A stretch of DNA of 64,000 nucleotides, taken from the NCBI GenBank assembly GCA_965198115.1, contig OZ240241.1, positions 192,001-256,000 of the forward strand. Direction: 5' to 3'. Shown here piece by piece: positions 1,836 through 64,000 of this stretch (the first letter of the stretch is position 1; each line of letters starts with the position of its first letter). The notes below the pieces were generated by a model. That model ran no database searches, had not been told where the DNA came from, and was given only the letters and a program-made list of their open reading frames with translations. Origin of the DNA: Candidatus Latescibacterota bacterium (GTDB taxonomy: Bacteria; Latescibacterota; UBA2968). The position numbers and the translations under genes are program-made.

Positions 1836-2212
1836 GAAGACGTGGCGCTCTCGGCGACGACCACCGCGATGGCTTGTGTGTCGGTGTGGGTCAGGCTGAC
1901 GAGGAAACGCCGGTCTCCGGCTAGTTCACCCGAGCGCCCGTGCAACGTCATTTGGGGTGCGGCCCCCGGGGCGCGGGTCACCTCGAGGTCGACCCACCGG
2001 ACACCCTTCTTCCACCCGGTACCGAGCGCTTTCATGGCTGCCTCTTTTGCGGCGAATCGGGCAGCCAGAGATCGATGGTTTTCGCCCTTGCGAAAGCAGT
2101 AGGCCTGCTCTTTGGGGGTATAGACTCGGTTCAGAAACCGATCGCCCCACCGGGCGACAGCGGCCTCGATTCGCGCGACGTCGACGAGGTCGATACCGAT
2201 CGAATGGATCAC
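1832..2212 (-). CDS. acpS: Holo-[acyl-carrier-protein] synthase
   Basis: GIDLVDVARI, LAARFAAKEAAMKALGTG, VSLTH motifs; 126 aa. Confidence 0.96.
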   Translation of the reverse strand: MIHSIGIDLVDVARIEAAVARWGDRFLNRVYTPKEQAYCFRKGENHRSLAARFAAKEAAMKALGTGWKKGVRWVDLEVTRAPGAAPQMTLHGRSGELAGDRRFLVSLTHTDTQAIAVVVAESATSS

Positions 2213-2311
2213 GGGACAGGCTTATCTCGACCCGATTGGGAAACCGTCGAAATAATACAGGAAGGGCCGGTGCCAGGCAACAACTTTGCCTTTCAACAGG
2301 GCGTTTTAAGG

Positions 2312-2806
2312 CTATTGGGTGAGGGTATCTACCGTTCCGTCGGGGTGACGGATCTCGAGCAGGTCTTCCTCGAAAACCATGGTCAATCCTTCTCCGTCCG
2401 ACCACGTCCACTTTTCGCCCTCTTCTGTGATCGTACCGGACGTCGATCTGTACTCTGTACTCACTCCCTCGGTGTAGTGCTGCGACAGGCCACCATTGAT
2501 TTTCATGTAGGTTAGCCTATCGTAGGAATCGGTGCCGTGGATGGCAATGTGGTCACCCTGAACCTGAACCGATTCAGGATCGTACGTTGTGAGAAAACTG
2601 AGGTGTGCGTGCGACGGGTCGGTCGGGAACCATTCCATTCGCCCACTGATCTGTGGAGGTCTGATCTCCCGGCCGTCGGGTAGCACGCGTGATTCCAGAA
2701 CCCAGATTTCTTTGAACGGGTCTTGCCATTCATCATCAGCCGTGCAACCGAAAGTCCCAGCGAGAAGAGGACAGAGAACGAGGGCAAAACGCCAGAAGAT
2801 CCGCAT
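2312..2806 (-). CDS. Hypothetical exported protein/lipoprotein
   Basis: Basic then hydrophobic N-terminus ending TFGC (lipobox-like); acidic, beta-rich body. Confidence 0.6.
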   Translation of the reverse strand: MRIFWRFALVLCPLLAGTFGCTADDEWQDPFKEIWVLESRVLPDGREIRPPQISGRMEWFPTDPSHAHLSFLTTYDPESVQVQGDHIAIHGTDSYDRLTYMKINGGLSQHYTEGVSTEYRSTSGTITEEGEKWTWSDGEGLTMVFEEDLLEIRHPDGTVDTLTQ

Positions 2807-3066
2807 GGAGGCCTCAGATTTTCAGTTCGGGTCAAGTCAAATCGCCGCGAAATAAATGCCGGCCGTTGTCTTGTGTCAACTCGAATCCGGGATCGGTAGC
2901 TGCGGTAGCGCCCATCGAACGAGGGTCGTGTTATTGAAGCCCTCGCTCATCCGGGGCTGCTAAGCCGGTTTGCGGACATAGCGCTTGCTGCCCGAGACGG
3001 GAAAGAGGATATTTCGACGTCGTCCGGGAAGATCGTACCGTCGACATTTCAGTTTTTGGTTTGACA

Positions 3067-3154
3067 GGTGGGGTGTCCGAGTGGTTTAAGGAGCTGGTCT
3101 TGAAAACCAGTGACCTTCACGGGTCCGTGGGTTCGAATCCCACCCCCACCGCCA
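3067..3154 (+). tRNA. tRNA-Ser (anticodon TGA)
   Basis: Acceptor GGTGGGG/CCCCACC, anticodon arm CTGGT-CT TGA AA-ACCAG, long variable arm, GTTCGAATC T-loop, encoded CCA. Confidence 0.96.
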
Positions 3155-3245
3155 AGCCGACCCTTCGAAACCCTCCCAAGCTTGCGATAGTCCCTTGTTT
3201 TAGTTAATCTTGAAGTCTGAATTTTCCGATGTTAGATAAACTCAA

Positions 3246-3337
3246 GGAGAGGTGCTGGAGTGGTTGAACAGGGCGGCCTGCTAAGCCGTTGCAGGGGTAC
3301 TCCCTTGCCGAGGGTTCGAATCCCTCCCTCTCCGCCA
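3246..3337 (+). tRNA. tRNA-Ser (anticodon GCT)
   Basis: Acceptor GGAGAGG/CCTCTCC, anticodon arm GCGGC-CT GCT AA-GCCGT, long variable arm, T-loop, CCA. Confidence 0.96.
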
Positions 3338-3347
3338 AAAATCTCGT

Positions 3348-3477
3348 GGGTCGTGGGCGGTTTGCGGTCGGTGGTAGCTGATTTCCGCCCATCCTGATGT
3401 GCCACCGAGCAGGGCCACATCCTGAATGACAAGGTCGGGCGGTGCCCACGACCGCCCACCGCTCACCACCGACGACC
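3348..3477. repeat. Inverted pair of degenerate 7-mer tandem arrays
   Basis: G-rich array at 3348-3378 (ggtcgtg ggcggtt tgcggtc ggtggta) and complementary C-rich array at 3445-3477 (cccacgaccgcccaccgctcaccaccgacgacc), ending 2 nt before the gltX ATG. Confidence 0.65.
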
Positions 3478-11750: not shown

Positions 11751-11777
11751 CACTGAGGGCACTGAGATCGCTGAGGT
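11751..11777. repeat. 9-mer tandem triad just after a stop codon
   Basis: CACTGAGGG CACTGAGAT CGCTGAGGT, 7 nt after the stop at 11743. Confidence 0.7.
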
Positions 11778-12502: not shown

Positions 12503-13922
12503 GGCTATATCCGGATCTCTCAACGAGATGAAGTGGGTGAAGGTGCCGTGGTTCCTGGCATGGGGGCGCGGTTAGAGTGTGCGGAACCTCTTCGGAATCT
12601 GCTCAGGGATGTTTATGTCTCCGACGGTAAGGAAGATCATATCGTTGAATGCGTCGAGTGTGCGGAATCCGCTGGCTCGGTTCTTGACGATTTGGACGAT
12701 TCGGTTGAGGCCTTCGGCGATGGCGTTGGTAAGACGCGTGTTCACGAATGCGAGGACGCCGAAGAAGTGCTGTCGCAGGGTCCTGACGAACTTTCGCAGG
12801 GGTTCAAGTCGACTTCTGAGTGCGGACGTCGTCCAGCATTTCAGGAAGCGTTCGGCAGCCCAGGGCGCTTTGTATTCCCAGAACTGCTCGAACTCGTCCT
12901 TGAGTCTCCAGGCTCTATAGATTCGGTAGTTCGCCTTCTCCAGTGCTTTGAGTGTCCGAGTATCCCCTCTGGAGCGTGTCGCTGAGTGCCGGTAGAGGAG
13001 CCATCGGAGGCCCTTCATGGCTTTGCGCTCATCCGGGGCAGCTTTACGCCACTGGTCCTTACGGACCTCGTCAACGGCGGCATTGAGAGCCTTGACGATG
13101 TGAAAGCGATCGAGGACCAGCTTGGCATTCGGACAGTGTTCCTGGATGGCTCCGATGTAAGCTTCGCTCATGTCGCAGCAGGCCCACTCGATCTTGGATC
13201 TCCGGTAGGGACTGAGAGCCTCTGTGAAGAACCGATCGATCGTTTTACGCGCCCTGCCGCGGCCAACCCACACCACGCAGGAGCGGTCCAGATCGTAAAC
13301 GAGCGTGGCGTACCTGTGACGCTTGGCGTAGGAGATCTCGTCGATCCCGATGGTTTTGAGCCCTCGGATACGATGACCTTCACGAAGCCGCGTGATGGAT
13401 CGGTGAAGGAGATCCGACAGCGTCGAGGCAGAGATGCGCAGTAACTCGGACGCCGCCTTCTGCGTCATGGTCTGGCAGTAGCGCAGCATGGCATACTCGA
13501 AGCGATACGTCACCCGAGAGAACCGCTCCGCCCACGGAATCTCCTCGACCACACGACCGTGGGTAGGACACCGAATCTCCCGAGGATGGTAGAGAAGCCA
13601 GACCCTCCACCCGCACACCGGAATGTCACGCCACCGACGCGGATGGGGCATTGTGCGGACGATTTTACCTCGACGGCCGCACTCCGGACAACAACAACCA
13701 TTCTTATGTGGCTTTACGGCGATGACGAAACAGCTTCTCCCCTCAAACCACCAGCTGACAACACGGAACCCCTTGAATCTCAGCAGTTTCGATAGTAATC
13801 TGCTCCCGGTCATAGGTCGCACCCCCTTCGCTTTGATTGTCCTACACACACAACCAAGCGTAGGGAACGATCTATGACCTTGTCATTCTATAGTTTCACC
13901 GTTGAGAAACCCGGATAGAGCC
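12503..13922 (-). mobile_element. ISL3-family insertion sequence, copy 1 (1420 bp)
   Basis: Imperfect TIRs GGCTATATCCGGATCTCTCAACG / CGTTGAGAAACCCGGATAGAGCC; flanks ATTTAAAC / ATTTAAAA (7 of 8 TSD match). Confidence 0.93.
12572..13849 (-). CDS. ISL3-family transposase
   Basis: Zn-finger CPECG...CPTHG, IGIDE, CDMSEAY, DRFHIV, TNAIAEGLN, ASGFR. Confidence 0.93.
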   Translation of the reverse strand: MCRTIKAKGVRPMTGSRLLSKLLRFKGFRVVSWWFEGRSCFVIAVKPHKNGCCCPECGRRGKIVRTMPHPRRWRDIPVCGWRVWLLYHPREIRCPTHGRVVEEIPWAERFSRVTYRFEYAMLRYCQTMTQKAASELLRISASTLSDLLHRSITRLREGHRIRGLKTIGIDEISYAKRHRYATLVYDLDRSCVVWVGRGRARKTIDRFFTEALSPYRRSKIEWACCDMSEAYIGAIQEHCPNAKLVLDRFHIVKALNAAVDEVRKDQWRKAAPDERKAMKGLRWLLYRHSATRSRGDTRTLKALEKANYRIYRAWRLKDEFEQFWEYKAPWAAERFLKCWTTSALRSRLEPLRKFVRTLRQHFFGVLAFVNTRLTNAIAEGLNRIVQIVKNRASGFRTLDAFNDMIFLTVGDINIPEQIPKRFRTL

Positions 13923-14044: not shown

Positions 14045-15475
14045 ATGGCCAAACGGAAGCGCAATCTGATCCTGTTGGGGGTGGACAGTCTGTGGGCAGA
14101 TCGCATGAGTTGCTATGGATATCGCCACCAGACTTCCCCCCATATGGACAAGCTGGCCTCACAAGGTGTTCTGTTCGAAAACACCTACAGCCCGCACATT
14201 CCGACGACGTCAGCCTATGCCTCGATGCTCACTGGCAAGGATTGCTTTTCAACTGAAGTCGTCGCGCTGCGTCACCGGGGAGGGTTGACGAAGAAGGTCA
14301 GGACGTTACCTGAAATCCTTCGAAAAGCAGGCTACAACACGACGTGCGTGGGCTTTACTGGCAACCCGAGCTCGCGGGGATTCGATACGTATCACGAGTA
14401 TGCGGCGTGGGGGAGCTGGGAGCAGCGTCCCTTGCGAAAAGCCGAACTGTTGAACGACGAAACGATCCCAGAGTTGGAGCGGCTCTCGCGCAGCAAGAAG
14501 CCGTTCTTTCTGTTTCTGCGTCACATGGATCCGCACGCGCCCTACCTCCCGCCTGCACCGTATGACACGATGTTCTACAGCGCCGACCCGTGCGATCCCA
14601 AGAAGAAGAGCATGGAGGTGCCCCGGGCATTCAAGCCATTTCGAGACTTCCATTTGAGCTGGATGCCGCCGGGGATCACCGACGCGGACTACGTGAACGC
14701 ACAATACGATGGCGAAATCGCCTACATGGACGCGTGCATTCAGCGTCTGCTGCAGCGGGTCGACGAACTCGGTCTTGCTGAGGACACGCTGGTTGTTCTG
14801 AACGGAGACCACGGGGAGACGTTGGACGAGCACGAATGTTACTGGGACCATCACGGGTTGTACGAGTGTACGCTCCACGTCCCGCTGATGTTGCGTTTGC
14901 CCGGCGTACTGCCTGAAGGGAAGCGAATCGCGGGATACAACACGCACCAAGATCTCGTTCCGACTTTGATGGAGCTGCTGGGGGTGCGTCCGGGGATCAA
15001 GTTCGATGGCCGGAGTCTGTTGGGCATGGTCAGAGGTAAACGTCGGACGCATTCACCCGAATTCTACATCACCGAAGCGACCTGGATGCGGAAGCACGGT
15101 TGGCGTACGCCGGAATGGAAGCTGATCGTTGCTCTGGAGCCGGATTTCCACTTCAAGCCGGAGGTCGAGCTCTACAATCTGATCGAGGATCCAGGCGAGA
15201 CCAGGAATCTTGCCAAGAAGGAAAAGGCAGTGGTCGAGTTGCTGCGTGGGCGGATGGAGGCGTGGGTTGTGAAGCGCGAGAGGGAAACGGGCAATGTCAA
15301 TCCGATGTATACAAACCTGGACTGGCACGGGAAGACCGGCCACGGGCCGTTCAAGTCGTCGCAAGAGGCCTACGACATGACGCATATCGGATCGGCGGAG
15401 CGCGCACGGCGGCTTCAGGCGGGAGACAAAAGCAGGGGACCACGGAAGACACGGAAAACACGGAAGAAGGGCTGA
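14045..15475 (+). CDS. Sulfatase-like (alkaline phosphatase superfamily) hydrolase with Thr at the nucleophile position
   Basis: NLILLGVDSL, TTSAYASMLTG (aligns to CxPxRASxLTG), DPHAPY, GDHGE, HVPL, ELYNL..DPGE. The 3' end contains the 9-mer triad CACGGAAGA CACGGAAAA CACGGAAGA (15441-15467). Confidence 0.88.
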   Translation: MAKRKRNLILLGVDSLWADRMSCYGYRHQTSPHMDKLASQGVLFENTYSPHIPTTSAYASMLTGKDCFSTEVVALRHRGGLTKKVRTLPEILRKAGYNTTCVGFTGNPSSRGFDTYHEYAAWGSWEQRPLRKAELLNDETIPELERLSRSKKPFFLFLRHMDPHAPYLPPAPYDTMFYSADPCDPKKKSMEVPRAFKPFRDFHLSWMPPGITDADYVNAQYDGEIAYMDACIQRLLQRVDELGLAEDTLVVLNGDHGETLDEHECYWDHHGLYECTLHVPLMLRLPGVLPEGKRIAGYNTHQDLVPTLMELLGVRPGIKFDGRSLLGMVRGKRRTHSPEFYITEATWMRKHGWRTPEWKLIVALEPDFHFKPEVELYNLIEDPGETRNLAKKEKAVVELLRGRMEAWVVKRERETGNVNPMYTNLDWHGKTGHGPFKSSQEAYDMTHIGSAERARRLQAGDKSRGPRKTRKTRKKG

Positions 15476-16392: not shown

Positions 16393-16466
16393 AAAGCAGA
16401 ACCAAGAAGACACGAAGGTGAGAAGCGGGGAGAGACTCCTCGATAGTGTGTTTCAGGGGGTACTCG

Positions 16467-28757: not shown

Positions 28758-29736
28758 TTAGGATCGTGGACGCGCGTCCGCTTCAGGATTATGTCGAGGG
28801 CCATATTCCCGGCGCGATCCACCTGGACGTCTATGGCATCAGCCTCAACGATACGTCGGACGAACCGTTCAACGCGTTCATGTGGATGTATGCCTATCTG
28901 TTTGGCAGCCGAGGGATCGGATCGGACCAGACGATCGTCTTTTATGGCCAGAATTCCGATATGCGGGCCGCTCGGGCGTTCTGGGTTTGCGAGTACCACG
29001 GGCACGGAGATGTGCACGTGCTCGATGGCGGCTATGGTGCGTGGATGGCCGATGGGTATGAAACGTCGACGGTGTGCGAGAACGCAGAGAGTACTGTGTT
29101 CGAAAGCCAGGCAGAACCAACCTGCGCGATCGGCTATCAGGAACTGTTGGACTCGCTGAGTCGTGACCACTTCGTTCCACTCGACACGAGAAGCGAAGGT
29201 GAATACACGGGGGAAACGGTTCGGGCGGCACGAGGTGGGGCGATTCCGGGTGCAGTGCACATCGAGTATGTGAACAATCTCGATGATAACGGTTTCTTCA
29301 AACCCGCGGACGAACTCCGGATGATGTATGAGCGTGCGGGTGTGATGCCGGAACAGACCGTCGCCTGCTACTGACAGGGCGGCTACCGCTCTTCCCACAG
29401 CTACCTGGCGTTGCGGCTGATCGGTTACGAGAAAGTTCGCAACTACATCGGCTCGTGGAAGGAGTGGGGGGATAGACTGGAGTTGCCAGTCGAGAAACCG
29501 AGAGGCTGAAGGCACCAAGAAAACATTCCACACGAAGGCGCGAAGAGATTGTGGGGGAGCAGTCTCTGACTGAACTTCTGTCGGTCGACGAAAGATCAGT
29601 CGGCGGTCGGCGGTGCGCTGTGGGCGGAAGAGACGGCTTCGCCCCTGTGAATTTTTGCCAATTGCGTGTCCAAAAGAGGAGTGGCAGGTCGTCTTAGTGT
29701 ACTGGCTGAGCATATCCGGATGAAGATGGGCTGACA

Positions 29737-31137: not shown

Positions 31138-31176
31138 CCCTTCGATACGCGGCCTTCGGACGCTACTCAGGGCAGG
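31138..31176 (-). repeat. REP-like repeat, short copy F, followed by an 8-mer triad (31174-31197)
   Basis: CCCTTCGATACGC-ggccttcggac-GCTACTCAGGG; then AGGCAAGA CGCCAAGA CACCAAGA. Confidence 0.75.
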
Positions 31177-31215
31177 CAAGACGCCAAGACACCAAGAAAG
31201 ACGATACAGATTCTT

Positions 31216-33890: not shown

Positions 33891-34040
33891 ACCACGAAGA
33901 ACATGAAATACACGAAACGGAGGACCGCGGACCACACGGGAATACACGGAAGAGAGATGGGGCCTGGATCCGAGGCCCTATCGGGGACAAGACCGAGCAG
34001 AACCAGAAAACTTACCACGAAAAACACGAAATACAAAAAA
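33891..34040. repeat. Cluster of 9/10-mer tandem triads
   Basis: ac-CACGAAGAA CATGAAATA CACGAAA (33891), ac-CACGAAAAA CACGAAATA CAAAAAA (34014), and cacacgggaa tacacggaa (about 33933). Confidence 0.75.
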
Positions 34041-35703: not shown

Positions 35704-35722
35704 CCAGTCGTCAGTCGTCAGG
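35704..35722. repeat. 7-mer tandem array beside a start codon
   Basis: CCAGTCG TCAGTCG TCAGG, 11 nt from the sulfatase ATG. Confidence 0.55.
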
Positions 35723-35836: not shown

Positions 35837-36913
35837 TCAGCTGGTCCAGCATTCTTTGAGGAAGCGGATCCAATTGCCGTGGAGGATGTTGTCGATGTCC
35901 TCGCTCGAGTAGCCGCGGTTGCTCATGATTTCTGGAAGGCGCTGGAGATCGGCGATGGTGTTGAGGTCGCGCGGAGACTGTTCCTGGCCGAAGCCGCCGT
36001 CCAGGTCTGTTCCGATACCCGAATGTCGACAATTGCCGAGTAGCTGCGAGATGTGATCGATGTGATTGACGACGGTTTCGAGCGTGGCTTTGGTTGTTTG
36101 CTCGTAGCAGGGGCGCTGGCGGTCCCACGTGGGGTCGAGCATCCACGCGTCGAATGCTGCCCCAATGACGCCGCCGCGTTCGGCGATGGCCCTGATCATG
36201 TGGTCGGTGAGTTGGCGCTGGCCCGGGGTGAGCTCACGGCAATTGTGATGCGAGGCGCAGATGGGACCATCGTAGACGTCGAGCGTTTCCCAGAAGCCCT
36301 GATCGGTCGTGTGCGTCGTGTCGACGATAATGCCAGCTTCCTTCAGCGCGTCGAACAACGGTTTGGCACGGGGTAGGAGACCACCCTCGGTGCCGGTACC
36401 GTGCGCGTAGGAGCTCGTTCCGTAGTGCTGGATGCTGACCATCCTGAGGCCGAGATCGTACCACATCGGTACCTGATCCGGATCCAGAATGGGGTCGGCG
36501 CTTTCCATCGCGAGCATCACACCGACGGGTTCGTTCGAGGCCGGATCCTTCCACGCCTCGAAAGATGCATCCAGATCTTCTGCACTTCTGATGAATCGGA
36601 TCTCGCCTTCGGCTTCCATTGCCTCGTAGAACGCGTAGTGGCCCATGCCCACGCCGTGACACTGGGACTGGGCATACATACCGGTCTTCGTCCATCGATC
36701 GTTGGGGTCGATCCGGGACATGACCGTTCCGAAGATGATCCTGACGTGTCCTTTGCGCAGTTCGGGGAAGGTGACCGTGCAACTGCCGAAGCTTTGCTTG
36801 ACAGCCGCGCTGTCGTGACCCCGAACGGTCGCCGCCGGCTGTGTCAGATCGCGATTGACCTGAATAGCGCTGTAGCCGAGGTCCAGGTGGCTATCGATGA
36901 TCAGAGTTTTCAT
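35837..36913 (-). CDS. Membrane dipeptidase (peptidase M19), paralog 1
   Basis: IDSHLD, MESADPI, VDTTH, ASHHNCR, GIGTDLDGGF, GNWIRF. Confidence 0.9.
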   Translation of the reverse strand: MKTLIIDSHLDLGYSAIQVNRDLTQPAATVRGHDSAAVKQSFGSCTVTFPELRKGHVRIIFGTVMSRIDPNDRWTKTGMYAQSQCHGVGMGHYAFYEAMEAEGEIRFIRSAEDLDASFEAWKDPASNEPVGVMLAMESADPILDPDQVPMWYDLGLRMVSIQHYGTSSYAHGTGTEGGLLPRAKPLFDALKEAGIIVDTTHTTDQGFWETLDVYDGPICASHHNCRELTPGQRQLTDHMIRAIAERGGVIGAAFDAWMLDPTWDRQRPCYEQTTKATLETVVNHIDHISQLLGNCRHSGIGTDLDGGFGQEQSPRDLNTIADLQRLPEIMSNRGYSSEDIDNILHGNWIRFLKECWTS

Positions 36914-36920
36914 AGAAAAC

Positions 36921-37036
36921 AACCACGGAGAGCACGGAGGTCACGGAGGAACCATAAACCCCAAGTCAGTGCTGGGCCCAGCATTCGGGTTCACCCGCCA
37001 ACCACTCATTTGAATTTCTCCGTGTTCTCCGTGGTT
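36921..37036. repeat. 116-bp mini-element bounded by inverted 9-mer arrays
   Basis: Left aacCACGGAGAG CACGGAGGT CACGGAG; right ctccgtg ttctccgtggtt; 11-bp perfect terminal IR AACCACGGAGA/TCTCCGTGGTT; fills nearly the whole gap between the two dipeptidase genes. Confidence 0.85.
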
Positions 37037-38175
37037 CAGTTCTTCCAGGTTTCGTGGAAAAAGCGAATGAGGTTGCCGTGGGCGACTTTGGAGACGTCGT
37101 TCTCGCTGTAGCCGGCATCGCGCAGGTTGTCGAGAAAGATCTGGAGGTCGTCGATCGTGTTGTAATCGACGGGCGAGAGCTCGCGGCCGAAGCCTCCGTC
37201 GAGGTCAGTGCCGAAGGCGACGTGATCGGTGTTGCCTGTGAGCTGACAGATATGGTCGATGTGCTCGACGCCCGCTCTCATGGTGCGTGTCGCGTTGGTA
37301 TAGTGCGTGTTGGGATCGTCCCAATCCCAGGTCGGGCTGAGCATCTGCTCGGCGAAGACGGTGCCGATGACGCCTCCGCGGTCGGTGATGGCCTTGATCA
37401 TGTCGTCGGACAGGTGGCGCTGACCTCGGGTGAGGGCGCGGCAGTTGCAGTGACTGGCGTGGACGGGGCCGTCCCAATAGTCGAGGATCTGCCAAAAGGC
37501 GAGGTCGGCTGCGTGGGAGAGGTCGATGGCGATGTCGGTCTCGCGCAGCGCGTCCATCAGTGGGAACGCGGGCGGATAGAGTCCACCGACGGTGCCTGTG
37601 CCATGCCCGTAGGTGTTCGCGCCGAAGTGCGTGAGTGAGACCGAGCGCAGCCCATGTTCGTACCAGAATGCGACGTTGTCGGGCCCCAAAATCGGATCGG
37701 CGCTCTCCATCGTGAGAATGAGACCGACGGGTGTGACGTCCGTTGGGTTGTGCCACGCCGCGGCGGATGTGTCGAGGTCGGCCTTGGATTTTATCCAGAA
37801 GATTTCGCCAGCCTGCTCGAGGGCTTGATAATAATGAAGGTGTGACCGTCCGCGGGCGTGGGCAACGGCTTGCGTCCGGACAGCGTTGTGCATCCCCTCA
37901 CCAGCCGGTGCCTGCACACGAGCCATGATAGTCGTGAGCATGATGCCGATCCGGCCCTTGCGCATTTCCGGCAGGCTGACGGTGACCGTCACGGTTTTGT
38001 CAGACCAGGGGCCTTTGCGTCTTTCCAGCGAGTCGGGATGCTGCGAGATGCCCGAACGCACGGCATCCTCTCGCGCCCGGAGAACGTGGATGGGTTGTGT
38101 CAGATCGCGGCGGTTGTAGAGCGCGTTGTAGGCCATGTCGAGATGGCCGTCGATGATGAGGATTGGGTTACTCAT
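37036..38175 (-). CDS. Membrane dipeptidase (peptidase M19), paralog 2
   Basis: IDGHLD, MESADPI, IDLSH, ASHCNCR, FGTDLDGGF, GNLIRF. Confidence 0.9.
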   Translation of the reverse strand: MSNPILIIDGHLDMAYNALYNRRDLTQPIHVLRAREDAVRSGISQHPDSLERRKGPWSDKTVTVTVSLPEMRKGRIGIMLTTIMARVQAPAGEGMHNAVRTQAVAHARGRSHLHYYQALEQAGEIFWIKSKADLDTSAAAWHNPTDVTPVGLILTMESADPILGPDNVAFWYEHGLRSVSLTHFGANTYGHGTGTVGGLYPPAFPLMDALRETDIAIDLSHAADLAFWQILDYWDGPVHASHCNCRALTRGQRHLSDDMIKAITDRGGVIGTVFAEQMLSPTWDWDDPNTHYTNATRTMRAGVEHIDHICQLTGNTDHVAFGTDLDGGFGRELSPVDYNTIDDLQIFLDNLRDAGYSENDVSKVAHGNLIRFFHETWKN

Positions 38176-38191
38176 ATGAGCTTAGAAACGA

Positions 38192-38385
38192 AACCACAAA
38201 TGAACACGAATGAACACGAATGTCGATACTCCTGCAGATCGAGGCCCGAATCGGGAAGCCCGTCGGTGGTGCGGCGCAGTTAAAACCTTTGGAACCACAG
38301 ATGAACACAGATGCACACGGATGCGTGGCACGACTGAACACCGTGGCCCGAATCGGGAAAACTGATCGAGATGAACCTTAACCTT
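38192..38385. repeat. Two ~101-bp tandem units of conserved blocks alternating with 18-22-nt variable segments
   Basis: Each unit is a 10-mer triad (CACARATGAA type), variable 20/21 nt, GGCCCGAATCGGGAA, variable 22/18 nt, TTAA(AA)CCTT. Confidence 0.8.
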
Positions 38386-38436
38386 CAGGATACCCTACGT
38401 CGATGAGATCGCCTCCGGAATGTTCTTGCTGTCTGT

Positions 38437-39213
38437 TTACGTTCGGCTCATTTGGGCCAGCACTTTGGAGACTTTGCCGGCGAGGTCGTCGGGGTCGAAC
38501 GGTTTGACGACGATACTGGAAACGCCGAGAGAAATCGCCTCTGTGACGGTGGCTCGATCGGACTTGCTGGTCATGATAATGACTGGAATCTCGGCGAGCG
38601 CATCGATCTCCAAAATCTTCCGGACCATGTCGAATCCTGACATCCCGGGCAGGCCTAGACCGAACAGGAACAGATGCGGCGGGTCTCGTTCGGCCGCCGC
38701 CAGTGCCGCTTCGGGATCAGGGTAAGTCAACAAGGTGATGGGGTGTCGCGATAACGCAGTCTCGACCAGCCGTAAGGTCACAGGGTCATCGTCGACGGCG
38801 ATAACGGAGCCTCCGATGGTCCTGCCTTCCGGAATCGGCTGGTCCGGGAGCAGGGCTGTCAGTGTCTCCTGGAGCTTCTGCAGCTTGACGGGTTTGACGA
38901 GGAAACCGTCCGCATCCCGATCCTGAAGCATTGCCGCGCCCTGGTCGTCAACGTAGCCGGTGAAGACGACGACCTTGATACGTTCATCGTTCTCTCGGAT
39001 CCATTCTAGCAGTTGCCAACCGTTCAGGCCAGGCATCATCAGGTCGGTGATGACGAGGTCGATGTGGGCCGACCCCAGCACTTCGATGGCGCTTTCGGCA
39101 GATGGGGCTTCGAGGACCTGGTAGCCACTCCGCCGGATCATTTCGCCGACAGCTGCCCGGACCTCGAGTTCGTCGTCGACAACGAGGACGACTTTCGACG
39201 CGACGTCGCTCAT
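38437..39213 (-). CDS. Response regulator with two receiver domains and no output domain
   Basis: REC1 LVVDDE..LVITDLMMP..FTG..KP; REC2 AVDDD..LFLFGLGLP (phospho-Asp replaced by Gly)..MTS..KPF. Confidence 0.88.
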   Translation of the reverse strand: MSDVASKVVLVVDDELEVRAAVGEMIRRSGYQVLEAPSAESAIEVLGSAHIDLVITDLMMPGLNGWQLLEWIRENDERIKVVVFTGYVDDQGAAMLQDRDADGFLVKPVKLQKLQETLTALLPDQPIPEGRTIGGSVIAVDDDPVTLRLVETALSRHPITLLTYPDPEAALAAAERDPPHLFLFGLGLPGMSGFDMVRKILEIDALAEIPVIIMTSKSDRATVTEAISLGVSSIVVKPFDPDDLAGKVSKVLAQMSRT

Positions 39214-40040
39214 CAGCCGTAAGCGCCCTTTTTGTGTCGACCCAGCAATCGTTGGAGGCGTTCGTCGGCTCCCTCCCACACGTGCGCGGGCATCTGATAG
39301 TCTATAAAGGGGTAGAATCGCTGGGCGATGTAACGCTTGCTGTAGGTTACGCCGGCCAGTAGTCGCAGTTGATCCATCGTGTTGACGGACCCGCGATGCC
39401 AAACCTGGTTGTCGAACATGTAAGCGTCACCGGCCTTGGCGAAGATTGAAACGGGCCCTCGTCCTCGAAATGTCGGCTCGTCGATGTTCCTTTCAGGTCC
39501 GCGGCCGGCATAGTGGCTACCCGGAACGACTTGTGTCGGCGCCTTGTCGGGTGTGTCCATGTCCATCACGGCGGTGAAAATCTGCAGAACGTTGCACGGC
39601 GGTGGGATATCGGTCGGGTGCCCGTCGCATTCTTCCGGGACCGGGTGTTGAACGAGGTCATCAAGATGCCACCCGCCGCCGACGCCTGGCTCGTTCACGA
39701 GGGCATTCTGGGCCATCACGTGACAATTCTCACCCAGCACGGTTTCGGCGATCGTTGGGAACGGCTCTCGGACGATCAGGTCCCTGAACGCGCGGTCGTA
39801 TTCGAACATCCTCATCATACTTCGGCCACGGATGTGATCCCCAGCCTCGTCCTGTCGGATCGCTGGGTCCGACCACTTCCGTTCCATCCCCTCTTTCAAC
39901 GCCGCGACCTCGTCGTCGTCCAGCACCGGGCCCAGACAGTAGTAGCCATCTTTGTTGAGCGCGTTCTGGATGTCTCGGAGGGTGGCGGTGTCGGGTGGCG
40001 TTCCAGCTTTGATGGCGGGTGATGCTGTAGAAAGGGCCAT
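39213..40040 (-). CDS. Phytanoyl-CoA dioxygenase (PhyH) family 2OG/Fe(II) oxygenase
   Basis: KDGYY, WHLD (HxD), VVPGSH, WHRGS.N. Confidence 0.88.
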   Translation of the reverse strand: MALSTASPAIKAGTPPDTATLRDIQNALNKDGYYCLGPVLDDDEVAALKEGMERKWSDPAIRQDEAGDHIRGRSMMRMFEYDRAFRDLIVREPFPTIAETVLGENCHVMAQNALVNEPGVGGGWHLDDLVQHPVPEECDGHPTDIPPPCNVLQIFTAVMDMDTPDKAPTQVVPGSHYAGRGPERNIDEPTFRGRGPVSIFAKAGDAYMFDNQVWHRGSVNTMDQLRLLAGVTYSKRYIAQRFYPFIDYQMPAHVWEGADERLQRLLGRHKKGAYG

Positions 40041-42315: not shown

Positions 42316-42347
42316 TCAGTGACCAGTGAAATCTGACCAGTGACCAG
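42316..42347. repeat. 7-mer tandem array immediately after a stop codon
   Basis: TCAGTGA CCAGTGA ... CCAGTGA CCAG. Confidence 0.65.
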
Positions 42348-42361
42348 AAAGAGTCGGGTCT

Positions 42362-44327
42362 ATGGCAGAGCTACAACCTTCTGAGTTGACAGGTAGCGTG
42401 CGGGCCGAAACGCGGGCAGTGACGACGCGATCGGTCATCTGGGCGGTCTGCCTCATCGTGATCAGCGTGTGGTGGGACGAGTGGATGACCTACTACATGA
42501 GCGGCTCGAACATCAGCCGGAGCCACTTTCCCCTCGCCTTTCTCTTGCCGTTTCTCATCCTCTGTCTCCTGAACGCGATCGCACATCGATGTTGTCCTAG
42601 CAGAGCTTTGACGCGGCCAGAGCTGATGGTCGTGATGGTGACCGGTCTTGTCGCCATCTCAGTACCCTACGACGGCGTGACCGGCCACCTGATCAGTGTC
42701 ATCGCGGGGCCGTACTACTTCGCGACAGCGGAGAATCAGTGGGGCGCATACATCCACGATGCTATTCCGGTGGCTGGTGCCTTCGAACTCGCGTGGTGAG
42801 ATGGTTCTGTTTTTCGAGGGACTGCCGGCCGGTTACGCGATGCCTCTCGATGTCTGGCTGACACCGCTGCTATGGTGGTCGTGTTTGATCGCGGCGCTGG
42901 GCTTCACTGTTTTCTGCCTGGTCGTGATGCTCCGCAAGCAATGGATGCGGAACGAGCGACTTTCTTATCCCCTGATTGAAGCGGGCAGCCTTATCGCAGA
43001 TACGAGAATCGGCGGAGGACTGACAACCCAGCTGCGATCCCCGCTATTCTGGGTGGCCTTCGGAATCGTGATAGCCATCAAGCTGATGAACGTGGGTTCG
43101 TATTTCTCTCCCGCCTTTCCACGGCTGTCGATCGAGGGCGGCAACTTCCAGGCCCTTCCGGATTTCCCAAGACTGATCACGCGTGTCAGCTTTTACGCTA
43201 TCGGGTTCAGCTACTTCGCCAGACTGGATGTGCTTCTGAGCGTGTGGTTCTTCATCTTCATTACGGCGTGCGAGGTCTTTGTCTTCAACAAACTGGGTTA
43301 CAAGCTGGGCGCGGCTCCGAGTCAGTGGGGGAGTCAGGCACTGGGCTATCAGAGTCTGGGTGCTCTGATGTTCCTCGCGGGCTGGAGTTTGTGGATGGCA
43401 AGGCGTCACCTCGGGCAGGTCTGGGCGAAGGCGCTGCGAAACGACCCTGCCGTCGACGACAGCGAGGAACTTCTCTCGTATCGGACAACCGTTCTCGGAT
43501 TCGTATGTGCCTTCGTGTTCTGTGTCGGATGGCTGTTTGCGGCCGGTATGACGTGGTGGGTGATTTTCGTTTTTCTGACCGTTTCGTTGCTCGCTTTCAT
43601 CGGACTTTCCCGGGTCGTCGCCGAACTGGGTCTCGTCTACGTCTATTACCGTGTCCTGCCGACGCAATTCGTGCTTCAGACCTTCGGCGTTCAGATCCTG
43701 GGTGGAGCCAGCGTGGTTATCCTGGCCCTGACCCGCGGCATCGAGGGGATCGGAAAGGGCTTTATCATGCCCGCCTTTGCGCAGACGGTCAAAGCCGTCG
43801 ACGGTATCATCAAACCCCGCCGCGTGGCGCTCGTCCTGTTGCTCGCGATCGGGTTGGGCTACACGCTTTCGATCGCAGACACGCTCTACCTGGGCTATTC
43901 ACACGGGGCCTACAATCTGGGCAACATGGGTCTGAGGAAGGTCGGACCGCGTACTTTCAACGCGACGGTCAAAGAGGTGCTGAATCCGACGCCGTTCGGT
44001 GGGAAAGGAAGGATGCAGTGGGTCGGGGTCGGGATGTTTACGATGGCGATTCTGACGCTCGTGCGATATCGATTCCCCGCCTGGCCCCTGCACCCGATCG
44101 GGCTGGCGCTTCAGGGCAACTATGGTCTGACCAAGACGTGGATGTCGATTTTTATCGCTTGGTTCATCAAGGCGGTGTTGATGCGCATTGGGGGGGCCGC
44201 GCTCTACGAACGAGGAAAGCCCTTCTTCGTGGGGTTGATTGTAGCACAAGCCATCAGTACTGCGATGGTGTTTGTCGTGGATTGGATCTGGTTTCCGATG
44301 CAGGGACACAATGTGCACAACTATTGA
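42362..44327 (+). pseudogene. Large polytopic membrane protein (putative transporter, DUF6785/DUF6784-like) with one frameshift near 42768 (real or assembly indel)
   Basis: Many TM helices; YYFATAENQW, LRKQW...ERLSYPL, WPLHPIG, GGAALY...KPFFVGLI; two consecutive ORFs join at DAIP/RWLVP. Confidence 0.75.
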
Positions 44328-44739: not shown

Positions 44740-46079
44740 ATGGCCTTGGCATCTATTCCAAAGCACGTCGACTATTTAATGATCGGAGCGGGCGTTCACG
44801 GGTTGAGTACGGCGTGGCATCTGGCCAAAGATCTGAAAGCTGCGGGAAAGAGCGCGGATATTGCGGTTGTGGACAAGACGGGCGTTGCAGCGGGGGCGTC
44901 GGGGATCGCGTGTGGGGTCGTCCGCAATTTCTACTTCCAGCCGGCGATGGGTGCGGTGATGTTGGTTTCGTTCGACATCTGGGAAGCCGAGGCGGAGGCC
45001 CTGAATTTTCACAATTGTGAATACATCGCCGTCGTACCCGAACCACAGAACGCCGACATCGAGGCGATCTATGCCCGTCAGCAGGACGAGAATTCCCCTC
45101 GACGCTGGTCCAGGGTGAGCAGAAGGTCTTCGATCATATGCGAAAGATGTTTCCCGACTGGAAGGCGCGCGGTCTAACGTCACTTCTGCAGGAGCATCGC
45201 GGGGGGTTTGCCTTCAACAAGGAGGCGATCAACGGGCTCGCCGGACTGGCCCGTTCCGAAGGGGTGACCATCTATGATGGAGTTCAGATCATTGGATTCA
45301 AGTTTGGATCCGACAACACCGTGACACACGTGGAATCGACGGATGGAGACATCGAGGTCGGATGCGTCGTGAGCGGTGCGGGACCGTGGAGCGCTCGCGT
45401 CTGGGAGATGCTGGGTCTGTCCGATCGCGTCGATGTTCGAGACAATGATGGCGAGATGCACCTGGATCAGCCCCTGTGGACCTACTGGCGTCTGGAGGAG
45501 GGCGAGATCACGTTTCCCCTTTCCGACTACGCGACGTCAGACGGGAAAATGCCACCGGTTTTCCACTTCGACTCCCGCGAGACCCTGATCTCGGAGAAGA
45601 CTGGAGAGGTCCTGAGTGAGAAAGACGATCTTTGGGGCGTCTATTGGAAGAGTGACCGCGAGGGTGTACAGGGGGGTGCGGAGCCGATTCATCTCGGTGA
45701 AGAATGTAGTCTGGATCCATACGGGCCGGATAGCCCCGAACACGTCGTACGAGAGGACTTTGTCGAATTCTGGACCTCGGGGTTGGCCCACGCCATAGGA
45801 CGGTTCGAGGGGTCCTACCACAAGTACAATCGGATTCCCTCGGGAGGCGTCGGATGCTTCACGTTCGACAACTTTCCGATATTCGATTACGCACCAGGAA
45901 TCCCGAACGTCTATATGATTGCAGACAGCAACCACGGCTTTAAAATGATCGGTGTGGGGAAAGAGGTGGCGAAGGTGCTTGGGGGAGAATCGAGTTCGGT
46001 TTTGGATCCGTTTCGGTTCGCGCGGTTTGCGGAGGGGGATTTGCATCCGGTTTCGGGGAGTCCGTGGCCCTGGGGATGA
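44740..46079 (+). pseudogene. FAD-dependent oxidoreductase (DadA/sarcosine oxidase beta-like), frameshift near 45092 (real or assembly indel)
   Basis: IGAGVHGLSTAWHLA, GASGIACG, GAGPW, DSNHGFKM; one added base in aattcccc joins the two ORFs. Confidence 0.82.
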
Positions 46080-47979: not shown

Positions 47980-49399
47980 GGCTATATCCGGATCTCTCAA
48001 CGAGATGAAGTGGGTGAAGGTGCCGTGGTTCCTGGCATGGGGGCGCGGTTAGCGTGTGCGGAACCTCTTCGGAATCTGCTCAGGGATGTTTATGTCTCCG
48101 ACGGTAAGGAAGATCATATCGTTGAATGCGTCGAGTGTGCGGAATCCGCTGGCTCGGTTCTTGACGATTTGGACGATTCGGTTGAGGCCTTCGGCGATGG
48201 CGTTGGTAAGACGCGTGTTCACGAATGCGAGGACGCCGAAGAAGTGCTGTCGCAGGGTCCTGACGAACTTTCGCAGGGGTTCAAGTCGACTTCTGAGTGC
48301 GGACGTCGTCCAGCATTTCAGGAAGCGTTCGGCAGCCCAGGGCGCTTTGTATTCCCAGAACTGCTCGAACTCGTCCTTGAGTCTCCAGGCTCTATAGATT
48401 CGGTAGTTCGCCTTCTCCAGTGCTTTGAGTGTCCGAGTATCCCCTCTGGAGCGTGTCGCTGAGTGCCGGTAGAGGAGCCATCGGAGGCCCTTCATGGCTT
48501 TGCGCTCATCCGGGGCAGCTTTACGCCACTGGTCCTTACGGACCTCGTCAACGGCGGCATTGAGAGCCTTGACGATGTGAAAGCGATCGAGGACCAGCTT
48601 GGCATTCGGACAGTGTTCCTGGATGGCTCCGATGTAAGCTTCGCTCATGTCGCAGCAGGCCCACTCGATCTTGGATCTCCGGTAGGGACTGAGAGCCTCT
48701 GTGAAGAACCGATCGATCGTTTTACGCGCCCTGCCGCGGCCAACCCACACCACGCAGGAGCGGTCCAGATCGTAAACGAGCGTGGCGTACCTGTGACGCT
48801 TGGCGTAGGAGATCTCGTCGATCCCGATGGTTTTGAGCCCTCGGATACGATGACCTTCACGAAGCCGCGTGATGGATCGGTGAAGGAGATCCGACAGCGT
48901 CGAGGCAGAGATGCGCAGTAACTCGGACGCCGCCTTCTGCGTCATGGTCTGGCAGTAGCGCAGCATGGCATACTCGAAGCGATACGTCACCCGAGAGAAC
49001 CGCTCCGCCCACGGAATCTCCTCGACCACACGACCGTGGGTAGGACACCGAATCTCCCGAGGATGGTAGAGAAGCCAGACCCTCCACCCGCACACCGGAA
49101 TGTCACGCCACCGACGCGGATGGGGCATTGTGCGGACGATTTTACCTCGACGGCCGCACTCCGGACAACAACAACCATTCTTATGTGGCTTTACGGCGAT
49201 GACGAAACAGCTTCTCCCCTCAAACCACCAGCTGACAACACGGAACCCCTTGAATCTCAGCAGTTTCGATAGTAATCTGCTCCCGGTCATAGGTCGCACC
49301 CCCTTCGCTTTGATTGTCCTACACACACAACCAAGCGTAGGGAACGATCTATGACCTTGTCATTCTATAGTTTCACCGTTGAGAAACCCGGATAGAGCC
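47980..49399 (-). mobile_element. ISL3-family insertion sequence, copy 2 (1420 bp)
   Basis: Same TIRs and length as copy 1; only one substitution seen (last codon L vs R); flanks TTTTTTTT / ATTTTTTT. Confidence 0.93.
48049..49326 (-). CDS. ISL3-family transposase
   Basis: Identical to 12572-13849 except the last residue. Confidence 0.93.
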   Translation of the reverse strand: MCRTIKAKGVRPMTGSRLLSKLLRFKGFRVVSWWFEGRSCFVIAVKPHKNGCCCPECGRRGKIVRTMPHPRRWRDIPVCGWRVWLLYHPREIRCPTHGRVVEEIPWAERFSRVTYRFEYAMLRYCQTMTQKAASELLRISASTLSDLLHRSITRLREGHRIRGLKTIGIDEISYAKRHRYATLVYDLDRSCVVWVGRGRARKTIDRFFTEALSPYRRSKIEWACCDMSEAYIGAIQEHCPNAKLVLDRFHIVKALNAAVDEVRKDQWRKAAPDERKAMKGLRWLLYRHSATRSRGDTRTLKALEKANYRIYRAWRLKDEFEQFWEYKAPWAAERFLKCWTTSALRSRLEPLRKFVRTLRQHFFGVLAFVNTRLTNAIAEGLNRIVQIVKNRASGFRTLDAFNDMIFLTVGDINIPEQIPKRFRTR

Positions 49400-63700: not shown

Positions 63701-64000
63701 TCAGTTGCAGGCTTCAAATTTCAAGTTCCAAGTGGTTGCCTGGATCACGATGTAACCCTCATACGAACTTGGAACTGCATTCCAAGTGCGGAGCCGTCGC
63801 ATCTCGTGTCCGCGAGCCCGAAGCCCCGCTGCGGACCTCCTCGTCATCGACGGCAGCCACGGCCACCGCTCCTTGATCTCCCCGTAGATGTCCACAGTCG
63901 CAGCGTGGACGTTGTCTCCCACGTCATCGAAGCCGAAGATGTGAGCCATGTCCGCCATTCCCACCGCCTCGAATCGGGGCAGAGCCACCGCCAGCGTGTC
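63701..64000 (-). CDS. 3' part of a hypothetical protein entering from the right edge (C-terminus may be degenerate)
   Basis: Open frame with host-like codons (AHIFGFDDVG...IKERWPWLPSMT) that then runs through the 7-mer element. Confidence 0.45.
   Translation of the reverse strand, partial: DTLAVALPRFEAVGMADMAHIFGFDDVGDNVHAATVDIYGEIKERWPWLPSMTRRSAAGLRARGHEMRRLRTWNAVPSSYEGYIVIQATTWNLKFEACN
63713..63776. repeat. Inverted 7-mer arrays
   Basis: TTCAAAT TTCAAGT TCCAAGT ... GAACTTGGAACT; 10-bp perfect IR AGTTCCAAGT/ACTTGGAACT. Confidence 0.65.

Follow-up and report, generated by a model that had tools for sequence, protein, structure and literature searches.

Tandem 7-10-bp arrays at gene junctions of a Candidatus Latescibacterota genome: probable arms of decayed IVS-like cassettes, with solo arms oriented along the inferred direction of replication

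We know of no agreed origin for the excess of 7-10-bp intergenic repeats found in bacteria. Two described systems come close to the arrays analyzed here. The ORF-bearing 23S rRNA IVS of Coxiella, in the passages of (Warrier 2016, PMC4990558) used here, carries tandem heptamers upstream of a four-helix-bundle ORF. In Xanthomonas and Nostoc, heptamers of the types GGGAATC and GGGGA(C/T)T form short heterogeneous intergenic arrays no more than ~50 bp from start or stop codons, often as inverted pairs (Rehm 2015, PMC4692102). The parts of that paper considered here describe one G-rich unit type per genome, interpreted as G-quadruplex and lacking cargo genes; they report no leading or lagging preference in Xanthomonas and leave the role of the repeats open.

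We have analyzed a window of 64,000 nucleotides (positions 192001-256000 of the genome, called G000 below, which is one contig of 8.43 Mb), for which 17 short tandem arrays had been predicted, one of them within a complete 116-bp element at 36921-37036. All 17 were present at the predicted positions, as were the reverse-complement right edges at 37016-37036, ~3445-3477 and 63765-63776. The element and its surroundings consist of the following features:

35837..36913, minus strand: host gene for a membrane dipeptidase (PF01244), outside the element
36914..36923, plus strand: A-rich leader, outside the left arm and directly 5' of the downstream dipeptidase gene's start codon
36924..36949, plus strand: left arm of three 9-mers, origin-side by local GC skew
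36950..37015, no strand: interior of 66 nt, without a gene, which folds as an inner hairpin
36975..36989, plus strand: internal box, probably in a variant form, located 25 nt in from the left arm, recognized by eye and below the profile cut-off
37016..37036, minus strand: right arm, composed of two inverted 9-mers and adjoining the stop codon where the upstream gene ends
37036..38175, minus strand: host gene for a membrane dipeptidase (PF01244), next to its paralogue in relatives

The other arrays of the window are:

3348..3477, plus strand: 7-mers in a degenerate inverted pair, located between a tRNA gene and the ORF that follows
11751..11777, plus strand: solo 9-mer arm, 8 nt past a stop codon
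13936..13965, plus strand: solo 7-mer arm beside an ISL3 end
15441..15467, plus strand: solo 9-mer arm within the last codons of a sulfatase ORF
16403..16420, plus strand: degenerate solo 8-mer arm, 11 nt past a stop codon
17593..17620, plus strand: solo 7-mer arm
29531..29547, plus strand: solo 8-mer arm
31174..31197, plus strand: solo 8-mer arm
33893..34035, plus strand: stacked solo 9-mer arms with a box at 33973; 34016 is the second array in the gap
35704..35721, plus strand: solo 7-mer arm with a start codon 12 nt away
38195..38255, plus strand: solo 10-mer arm (38195-38222) with a box at 38243
38296..38357, plus strand: solo 10-mer arm (38296-38324) with a box at 38345, the second array in its gap
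42317..42347, plus strand: solo 7-mer arm, 3 nt past a stop codon
44326..44349, plus strand: solo 7-mer arm overlapping a stop codon
63713..63776, plus strand: short inverted 7-mer pair

The 116-bp element is squeezed in between two paralogous dipeptidase genes, at the stop codon of one and the start of the other, and it folds strongly (-56.8 kcal/mol, z -4.76, with none of 200 shuffles as good). Its A-rich leader is a family trait of CAC-type arms. A sequencing contig was identical over 35978-39500, from a run that may be the source sample. The only Rfam matches in the window were tRNAs, a 23S probe run over the whole genome gave no match, and neither the element nor the window contains a PF05635 ORF, the two arm-bearing loci of this type being elsewhere in the genome. 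When the same junction was compared in 11 relatives, the genes nearly touched or overlapped in 6, a gap free of arrays was found in 2, and the remaining 3 had other arm pairs (a 10-mer, a different 9-mer and a 7-mer pair). The next junction along carries 10-, 8- or 7-mer arms depending on the species. We searched for an excision joint in read contigs at two loci and found none; such contigs drop rare variants. An RNA run gave hardly any coverage of the locus of the element.

According to the original prediction, most arrays begin within about 40 nt of a stop or start codon. This holds for 11 of the 17, but the array at 3348 follows a tRNA gene, 13936 adjoins an ISL3 end, the arrays at 34016 and 38296 each come second in their gaps, and 15441 is inside an ORF. 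The rule that the purine-rich form is on the + strand at the left edge is valid in the window but fails genome-wide, where both strands are equally used (9-mers, 70 on + and 74 on -). Over this window the + strand is the G>C one, and since solo arms favour the inferred leading strand (see below) this would account for all arrays here being on it. Besides, the window contains two copies (12572-13849 and 48049-49326) of an ISL3 element that has ~245 near-identical copies genome-wide. High-copy DNA makes up ~14% of the genome, in which we counted 678 IS-size segments. At 42398-44327 and 44779-46079 there are a DUF6785 gene and a FAD-dependent oxidoreductase gene, each split so that two ORFs cover consecutive parts of one domain.

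The whole genome was examined over 4,449 intergenic gaps, delimited by our own gene calls (with approximate starts) after masking high-copy DNA. Arrays of period 7, 8, 9 and 10 numbered 292, 111, 172 and 76, against ~21, 15, 19 and 19 in dinucleotide shuffles, i.e. they were ~4-14 times commoner than the shuffled expectation. Periods 4-6 and 11 were at most weakly enriched, and periods 12 and 13 showed a smaller excess (50 and 38 versus ~18 and 22). Purine-rich arrays were nearer the left edge of the gap (184:53) and pyrimidine-rich ones nearer the right (66:203; p 5e-34), in all four classes of gene orientation, and 46-51% of arrays were found within 40 nt of a gap edge, with 28% expected. 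Both the boundary enrichment and the polarity for which the original prediction had proposed a comparison with shuffled controls are found genome-wide. Thirteen unit families, defined by hand, gave 471 strict arms, mostly of 2-3 units. The units are non-palindromic tandem 7-10-mers, most without G-tracts. Same-family pairs faced inward in 16 cases and outward in none, as expected from the inward-facing ends that had been proposed. A same-family partner within 700 nt was found for only 61 of 466 arms, 87% of the arms being solo, and a search for an eroded partner beside solo arms gave little trace. Paired elements, taken as single-stranded DNA, had strong folds (z < -2 in 35 of 43).

The original prediction linked such arrays to GxxExxY and four-helix-bundle genes of other genomes, and the link holds within this genome and in its relatives. 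There are five GxxExxY loci, all with at least one CAC-type arm, and two four-helix-bundle (PF05635) loci, both with a degenerate 8-mer arm. Of the GxxExxY genes, two are full length with 9-mer or 8-mer arms on both sides, another, flanked by two 10-mer arms, carries an internal deletion, and the other two are broken and retain one arm. Intact cassettes consist of an arm, a small gene and an inverted arm, co-directional with the operon. The internally deleted cassette is intact at the orthologous junction of G001, a genome of the same genus, and one cassette is common to both genomes by descent. Intact or broken cargo genes had no fork orientation (4:3). A search for other cargo, covering facing arms separated by 250-1,600 nt, recovered GxxExxY loci alone, the rest being ordinary genes between independent arms.

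The same arrangement was found far beyond this genus. For the 9-mer cassette protein we had 384 relatives, and of the best 80 (at 62-80% identity, from ~15 phyla judging by record titles) 68 had inverted flanks, with period 9 dominant, against 2 of 59 control flanks. A period-7 array was found on at least one side at 20 of 30 four-helix-bundle loci. On a tree of 43 proteins (from 27 of the 30 kin loci and one in five of the 80 relatives) the arm class changed 3 times, which is the minimum, versus 17.5 when shuffled, the classes (8, 9, 10 and other) having been set after the flanks had been seen. The arm period tracks the clade of the cargo protein across phyla. Since there are ~470 arms and 7 cargo loci, and cargo remnants within 450 nt accompany only 8 arms (at 5 of the 7 loci), for the other arms a cassette origin is something that we only infer. 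Still, the arrays are very probably cassette arms or their relics. This origin is testable because one genome holds the full series, i.e. intact, internally deleted, empty pair, solo arm and empty site.

Two side observations concern the cassettes of other genomes. In G018 (L020) and G023 (L021) GxxExxY cassettes that differ in clade and in arm unit lie behind one and the same host gene end, which suggests that one junction has been used repeatedly. In G011 (L160:1106-1891, 1860-3284), and similarly in G014 (L161), a four-helix-bundle cassette with 7-mer arms is located within an apparent DNA methyltransferase gene, and in G011 a second frame runs open all the way through the cassette and on into the C-terminal part. 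If the number of 7-mer copies changed, the methyltransferase gene might be fused or split, a possible case of phase variation.

We have examined the cargo protein itself as a candidate nuclease. It belongs to the GxxExxY family (TIGR04256, 136.5 bits with a cut-off of 35; PF13366, E 7.5e-40), which comprises 35,690 clusters at 50% identity. Residues E30, D70, E80, K82, Q94 and Y98 were invariant in 49 GxxExxY sequences, and the structure model reached a pLDDT of 96. The best fold match (Foldseek) was Cas4 SSO0001 (PDB 4ic1; E 1.7e-4, Z 9.8, rmsd 4.2, 100 aligned); Hjc (Z 7.4, rmsd 3.1, 85 aligned) was in the range of common arrangements, and the best PDB match by sequence was a weak one to T7 endonuclease I (E 0.035). 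The model predicts a restriction-endonuclease-like PD-(D/E)xK fold with the catalytic residues kept. The predicted fold and the E..D..ExK..QxxxY residues are shared with Cas4 and with the RecB/AddB/lambda-exonuclease-type PD-(D/E)xK nucleases. Unlike them, the cargo is a stand-alone protein of ~125 aa whose role as a nuclease is predicted. Many family representatives of ~260-280 aa contain two copies of the domain. In the full-text literature (PMC open set and bioRxiv) the name GxxExxY turned up in only two papers, once in each, and the passage considered was unrelated to arrays. We put forward tentatively that the GxxExxY protein may mobilise the arms or cassettes; if it cuts its own arms, it would be a very small mobilising nuclease.

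The gain and loss of arms could be followed at 609 orthologous junctions shared with G001 (1.58 of its ~5.6 Mb), a genome too distant for the exact boundaries of elements to be read. With strict arms, 539 junctions had none, 56 had an arm in G000 only, 7 in G001 only and 7 in both. When two substitutions were allowed, 15 of 63 arms were common to G001 and 47 were specific to G000; the junctions of these 47 had a median of 77 nt extra, versus 3 nt at arm-free junctions. Empty-site alleles, which the original prediction had suggested looking for in sister genomes, are thus present, both at the junction of the 116-bp element (8 of 11 relatives) and at the G001 junctions that lack the G000 arms. 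The density of arms was 2-4 times that of G001 for most families. Two other genomes showed peculiarities of their own. G033 (L300, L303, L305, L311, L314) has nested arm pairs, the outer of CACGGAA type and the inner of CACGAAA type, with very AT-rich interiors of 210-380 bp in a genome of 59% GC, and two near-identical copies 1.46 kb apart. In G004, running the 9-mer pattern backwards as a control gave 152 matches, which points to a different, abundant family of 9-mer repeats.

Arms that are mostly solo and have 2-3 units might be slippage repeats arising locally, their likeness to cassette flanks being incidental; slippage has been proposed for bacterial heptamers in the passages considered of PMC4692102. 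We regard this as most improbable for the arrays described here. Slippage would not give the inward polarity, the A-rich leader, the limits of period 7-10 or the 16:0 ratio of inward pairs, nor would it match units with clades or lengthen orthologous junctions, and it is already contradicted by the inverted flanks of the cassettes and by the tree of arm classes.

The solo arms were oriented with respect to replication. We took as leading the strand with G>C in a 100-kb window, an assignment derived from GC skew alone. On this basis 340 of 410 solo arms have their inward reading direction on the leading strand, and so do 298 of 349, ~85%, under a stricter rule (only outermost arms, and only where no arm of whatever family faced them). 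The bias was found whatever the neighbouring genes, with leading to lagging ratios of 130:34 where both were lagging, 112:12 where both were leading and 98:24 where they were mixed, and C-rich units were leading-biased too (35:1 and 32:7). Strand composition was rejected as the cause of polarity, as a strand-specific model predicts only 50-53%. Among the controls, 53% of genes, 112 of 244 ISL3 copies, 22 of 48 copies of another IS and 34 of 62 arrays of other periods were on the leading strand. The replichores are unequal (~3.3 and 5.1 Mb), and at ~4.8-5.1, 5.6-5.9 and 7.6-8.0 Mb of G000 the GC skew opposes them; these segments would be recent inversions or assembly mis-joins at IS copies. Solo arms located there follow the local skew (37 of 46).

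The pattern was reproduced in G001 (32 of 37 solo arms leading) and, with 30 of 36, in G010, a genome from a different genus of which we used 20 stretches picked around arm hits. It was not seen in G033 (3 leading versus 5 lagging), where the skew is weak, and the 7-mer arms of G021, G024 and G027, three genomes of another family, appear strand-mixed. An unrelated REP-like hairpin repeat with 150 copies in G000 has a weaker leading bias (100 of 150). In 27 cases a CAC-type arm unit lies within the 30 nt after this hairpin, which often interrupts a 10-mer arm behind its first bases (examples are at 8310.8 kb and 8287.8 kb).

About ten unrelated units, most of them without the box described below, have one and the same polarity. 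As the bias is common to unrelated units, it points to a geometric cause, that is, a hairpin at the fork and not a sequence. We lean, though not by much, towards an origin of solo arms by fork-polarised loss. The reading that we prefer for the whole is that the arrays are probably decayed IVS-like selfish cassettes, with solo arms left where replication deleted the terminus-side arm of the hairpin. The series would begin with the intact cassettes observed here, whose arm period goes with the cargo clade. These would insert into stop/start junctions, where one and the same junction is found empty or differently armed between species. Internal deletion of the cargo with both arms kept, of which we have one observed case, would produce gene-less pairs of 50-230 bp such as 36921-37036. 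On the lagging-strand template, where it is single-stranded, such a pair would form a fold-back, and the polymerase would reach the terminus-side arm first, stall and re-anneal in the loop, so that the origin-side arm would remain, reading inward along the leading strand as the solo arms do. Finally, the GxxExxY protein, a predicted minimal nuclease of Cas4/RecB type with an intact active site, might cut the arms or the fold-back and drive spread.

Polymerase pausing at the base of a hairpin, together with slippage, has been described in vitro (PMC13465473); in the portion of that work considered here, direct repeats flanked the hairpin and both arms were removed. Re-annealing within the loop is what we infer beyond it. 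No movement was observed: target duplications, young copies and, in contigs, excision joints were all sought without a signal. The polarity of solo arms lends itself to a direct laboratory test, and it could possibly serve as a marker of fork direction in some lineages.

Other evidence bears on whether gene-less elements have copied themselves. The longest direct repeat around 30 paired elements was 4.37 nt, versus 4.31 nt when permuted, so that no target-site duplication was detected in copies that are old and have inexact boundaries. Among 438 interiors there was one identical pair, and six further pairs shared 49-83 nt at 75-86% identity; the near-identical copies typical of MITEs, or other signs of recent copying, were not found in this set, and spacers of the box family were at most 69% identical. 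The non-autonomous elements of the original prediction hence stand as regards inward ends, border enrichment and empty sites, but self-copying of gene-less elements is unsupported, because there is no excess of target duplications, a single identical pair of interiors and few partnered arms. Two candidate associations were rejected. An insertion preference of IS at arms was seen in only 4 outer and 4 inner cases of 471, and a RAYT/TIRYT link was discarded because Y1 transposase (PF01797) loci were near an arm in 2 of 56 cases, with 4.2 expected (the 56 loci were drawn from 75 genome matches). The terms 'TIR' and 'tandem' are absent from the text of PMC5581495.

Inside 9- and 10-mer arms, at ~21 nt, we found a 13-bp box, GGCCCTATTCGGG, in 89 elements (3 of them in the window), with no occurrence in a shuffled genome. 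Core box hits without an arm were 3 of 73, one of these having a degenerate arm. Pairwise identity among the 89 was 75% in the box region and 38% in the spacers, and the elements share a weak common consensus (spacer identity ~33% versus 25% at random). The exact box occurs 33 times in this genome and at most once in each of 30 relatives. G001 has 5 arm-box combinations in 1.58 Mb, and of 28 metagenome hits 9 had the combination, of which seven came from close kin and two matched a G001 locus. We found no support for the box as an IS end (the ISL3 end matches 11 of 13 bases, with different flanks, and no high-copy element has the wider motif), nor as a relic of the 5' coding end of GxxExxY (register 6th of 8,136, with a negative score). 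Beside a GxxExxY gene at L194:200-750 the box appears as a degenerate unit of an inverted arm, hinting that it may derive from an arm unit.

The box is the best evidence for readings other than ours. One of them is that gene-less elements, some single-armed or asymmetric, are or were non-autonomous mobile units copied in trans, with a fixed orientation at the lagging-strand template as in IS200/IS605; polarity would then stem from insertion and not from loss. The 89 arm-box elements, with fixed spacing and one consensus across 9- and 10-mer arms, fit past gene-less copying; 72 of them are on the leading strand, and 22 have a third conserved box ~37 nt further in that resembles a diverged right arm. 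The higher arm density relative to G001 in most families, the 75 PF01797 matches of the genome and the lagging-template targeting described for IS200/IS605 in the passages considered of 10.1101/279083 go in the same direction. Even so we find copying in trans rather unlikely, given that target duplications and young copies are missing, that about ten unrelated units, most of them boxless, are equally polarised, that Y1 loci lie away from the arms and that the cargo genes have no fork orientation.

Selection could instead have kept the arms and box as domesticated sites, for binding of a host protein, for RNA regulation or as fork-oriented signals of the chromosome. At three orthologous sites of G000 and G001 arm and box persist while the spacer has turned over (the 38296 arm also has a box variant at its G001 site), the box is dyad-symmetric, 58 of the 89 elements have the arm facing a start codon, and G001 shares the 15 of 63 arms mentioned above. 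Against this, 47 of the 63 arms are missing in G001, families are exchanged at one junction, the exact box is seen no more than once in any of the 30 relatives, and a single host factor would hardly orient ten units that are unrelated. An RNA structure in the region of the box was also rejected, with no covariation and the elements' own folds better in 34 of 89 (p 0.12). Domestication seems to us distinctly improbable.

Fork-polarised decay of cassettes is the reading that we favour. A bolder proposal, to which we give rather less than even weight, is that these are undescribed mobile elements of ~500 bp, in which a stand-alone Cas4/RecB-like nuclease or a four-helix-bundle protein would recognize period-coded arms and insert at stop/start junctions across phyla, seeding hundreds of gene-less derivatives, including a single-armed box subfamily, whose orientation is set by the fork. 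If true, 7-10-bp intergenic repeats would have one source, and a 125-residue protein would be a candidate site-directed nuclease. In the open full-text literature (PMC open set and bioRxiv) we found no account of the replication polarity of such arms or of the 13-bp box, nor 'four helix bundle' together with 'GxxExxY'. We consider the polarity and the internal box new features.

Several known systems share part of this pattern. REP/REPIN-RAYT and TIR/TIRYT (Di Nocera 2013, PMC3733652; 10.1101/279083) likewise have, in the passages considered, many gene-less inverted doublets at gene borders beside few gene-bearing copies, and a link to lagging-strand ssDNA has been described for the related IS200/IS605 family (Quentin 2018, 10.1101/279083). 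However, those are palindromes of 20-40 bp with a GTAG or CGTC tag, whereas here the units are non-palindromic 7-10-mers and the cargo is not an HUH transposase. The TAACTGA direct repeats of Beggiatoaceae (MacGregor 2015, PMC4679880) are also intergenic heptamers, mostly unpaired and suspected of a mobile origin, but they are oriented to start codons, unlike the arms described here, and the portion of that paper considered does not contain 'four helix', 'intervening' or 'endonuclease'. The Xanthomonas and Nostoc heptamers (PMC4692102, as far as its passages used here go) resemble our arrays in being intergenic, near codons and often in inverted pairs; they differ from the ~ten units of period 7-10, the cargo genes and the 83-85% leading bias found here. 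The S23p/PF05635 IVS (PMC4990558, in the same partial sense) come close, with a small four-helix-bundle gene between stem-forming terminal inverted repeats, a patchy distribution, horizontal acquisition and a decaying ORF. Their stable terminal stem is found in our paired elements (z -4.76 for the 116-bp element, and z < -2 in 35 of 43) and is inapplicable to solo arms. Unlike those IVS, the elements described here are found by the hundreds, with protein or tRNA genes as neighbours, are mostly without cargo and a second arm, and often go with GxxExxY. The system works like ORF-bearing IVS moved to gene junctions and, being outside rRNA, is not a member of that class.
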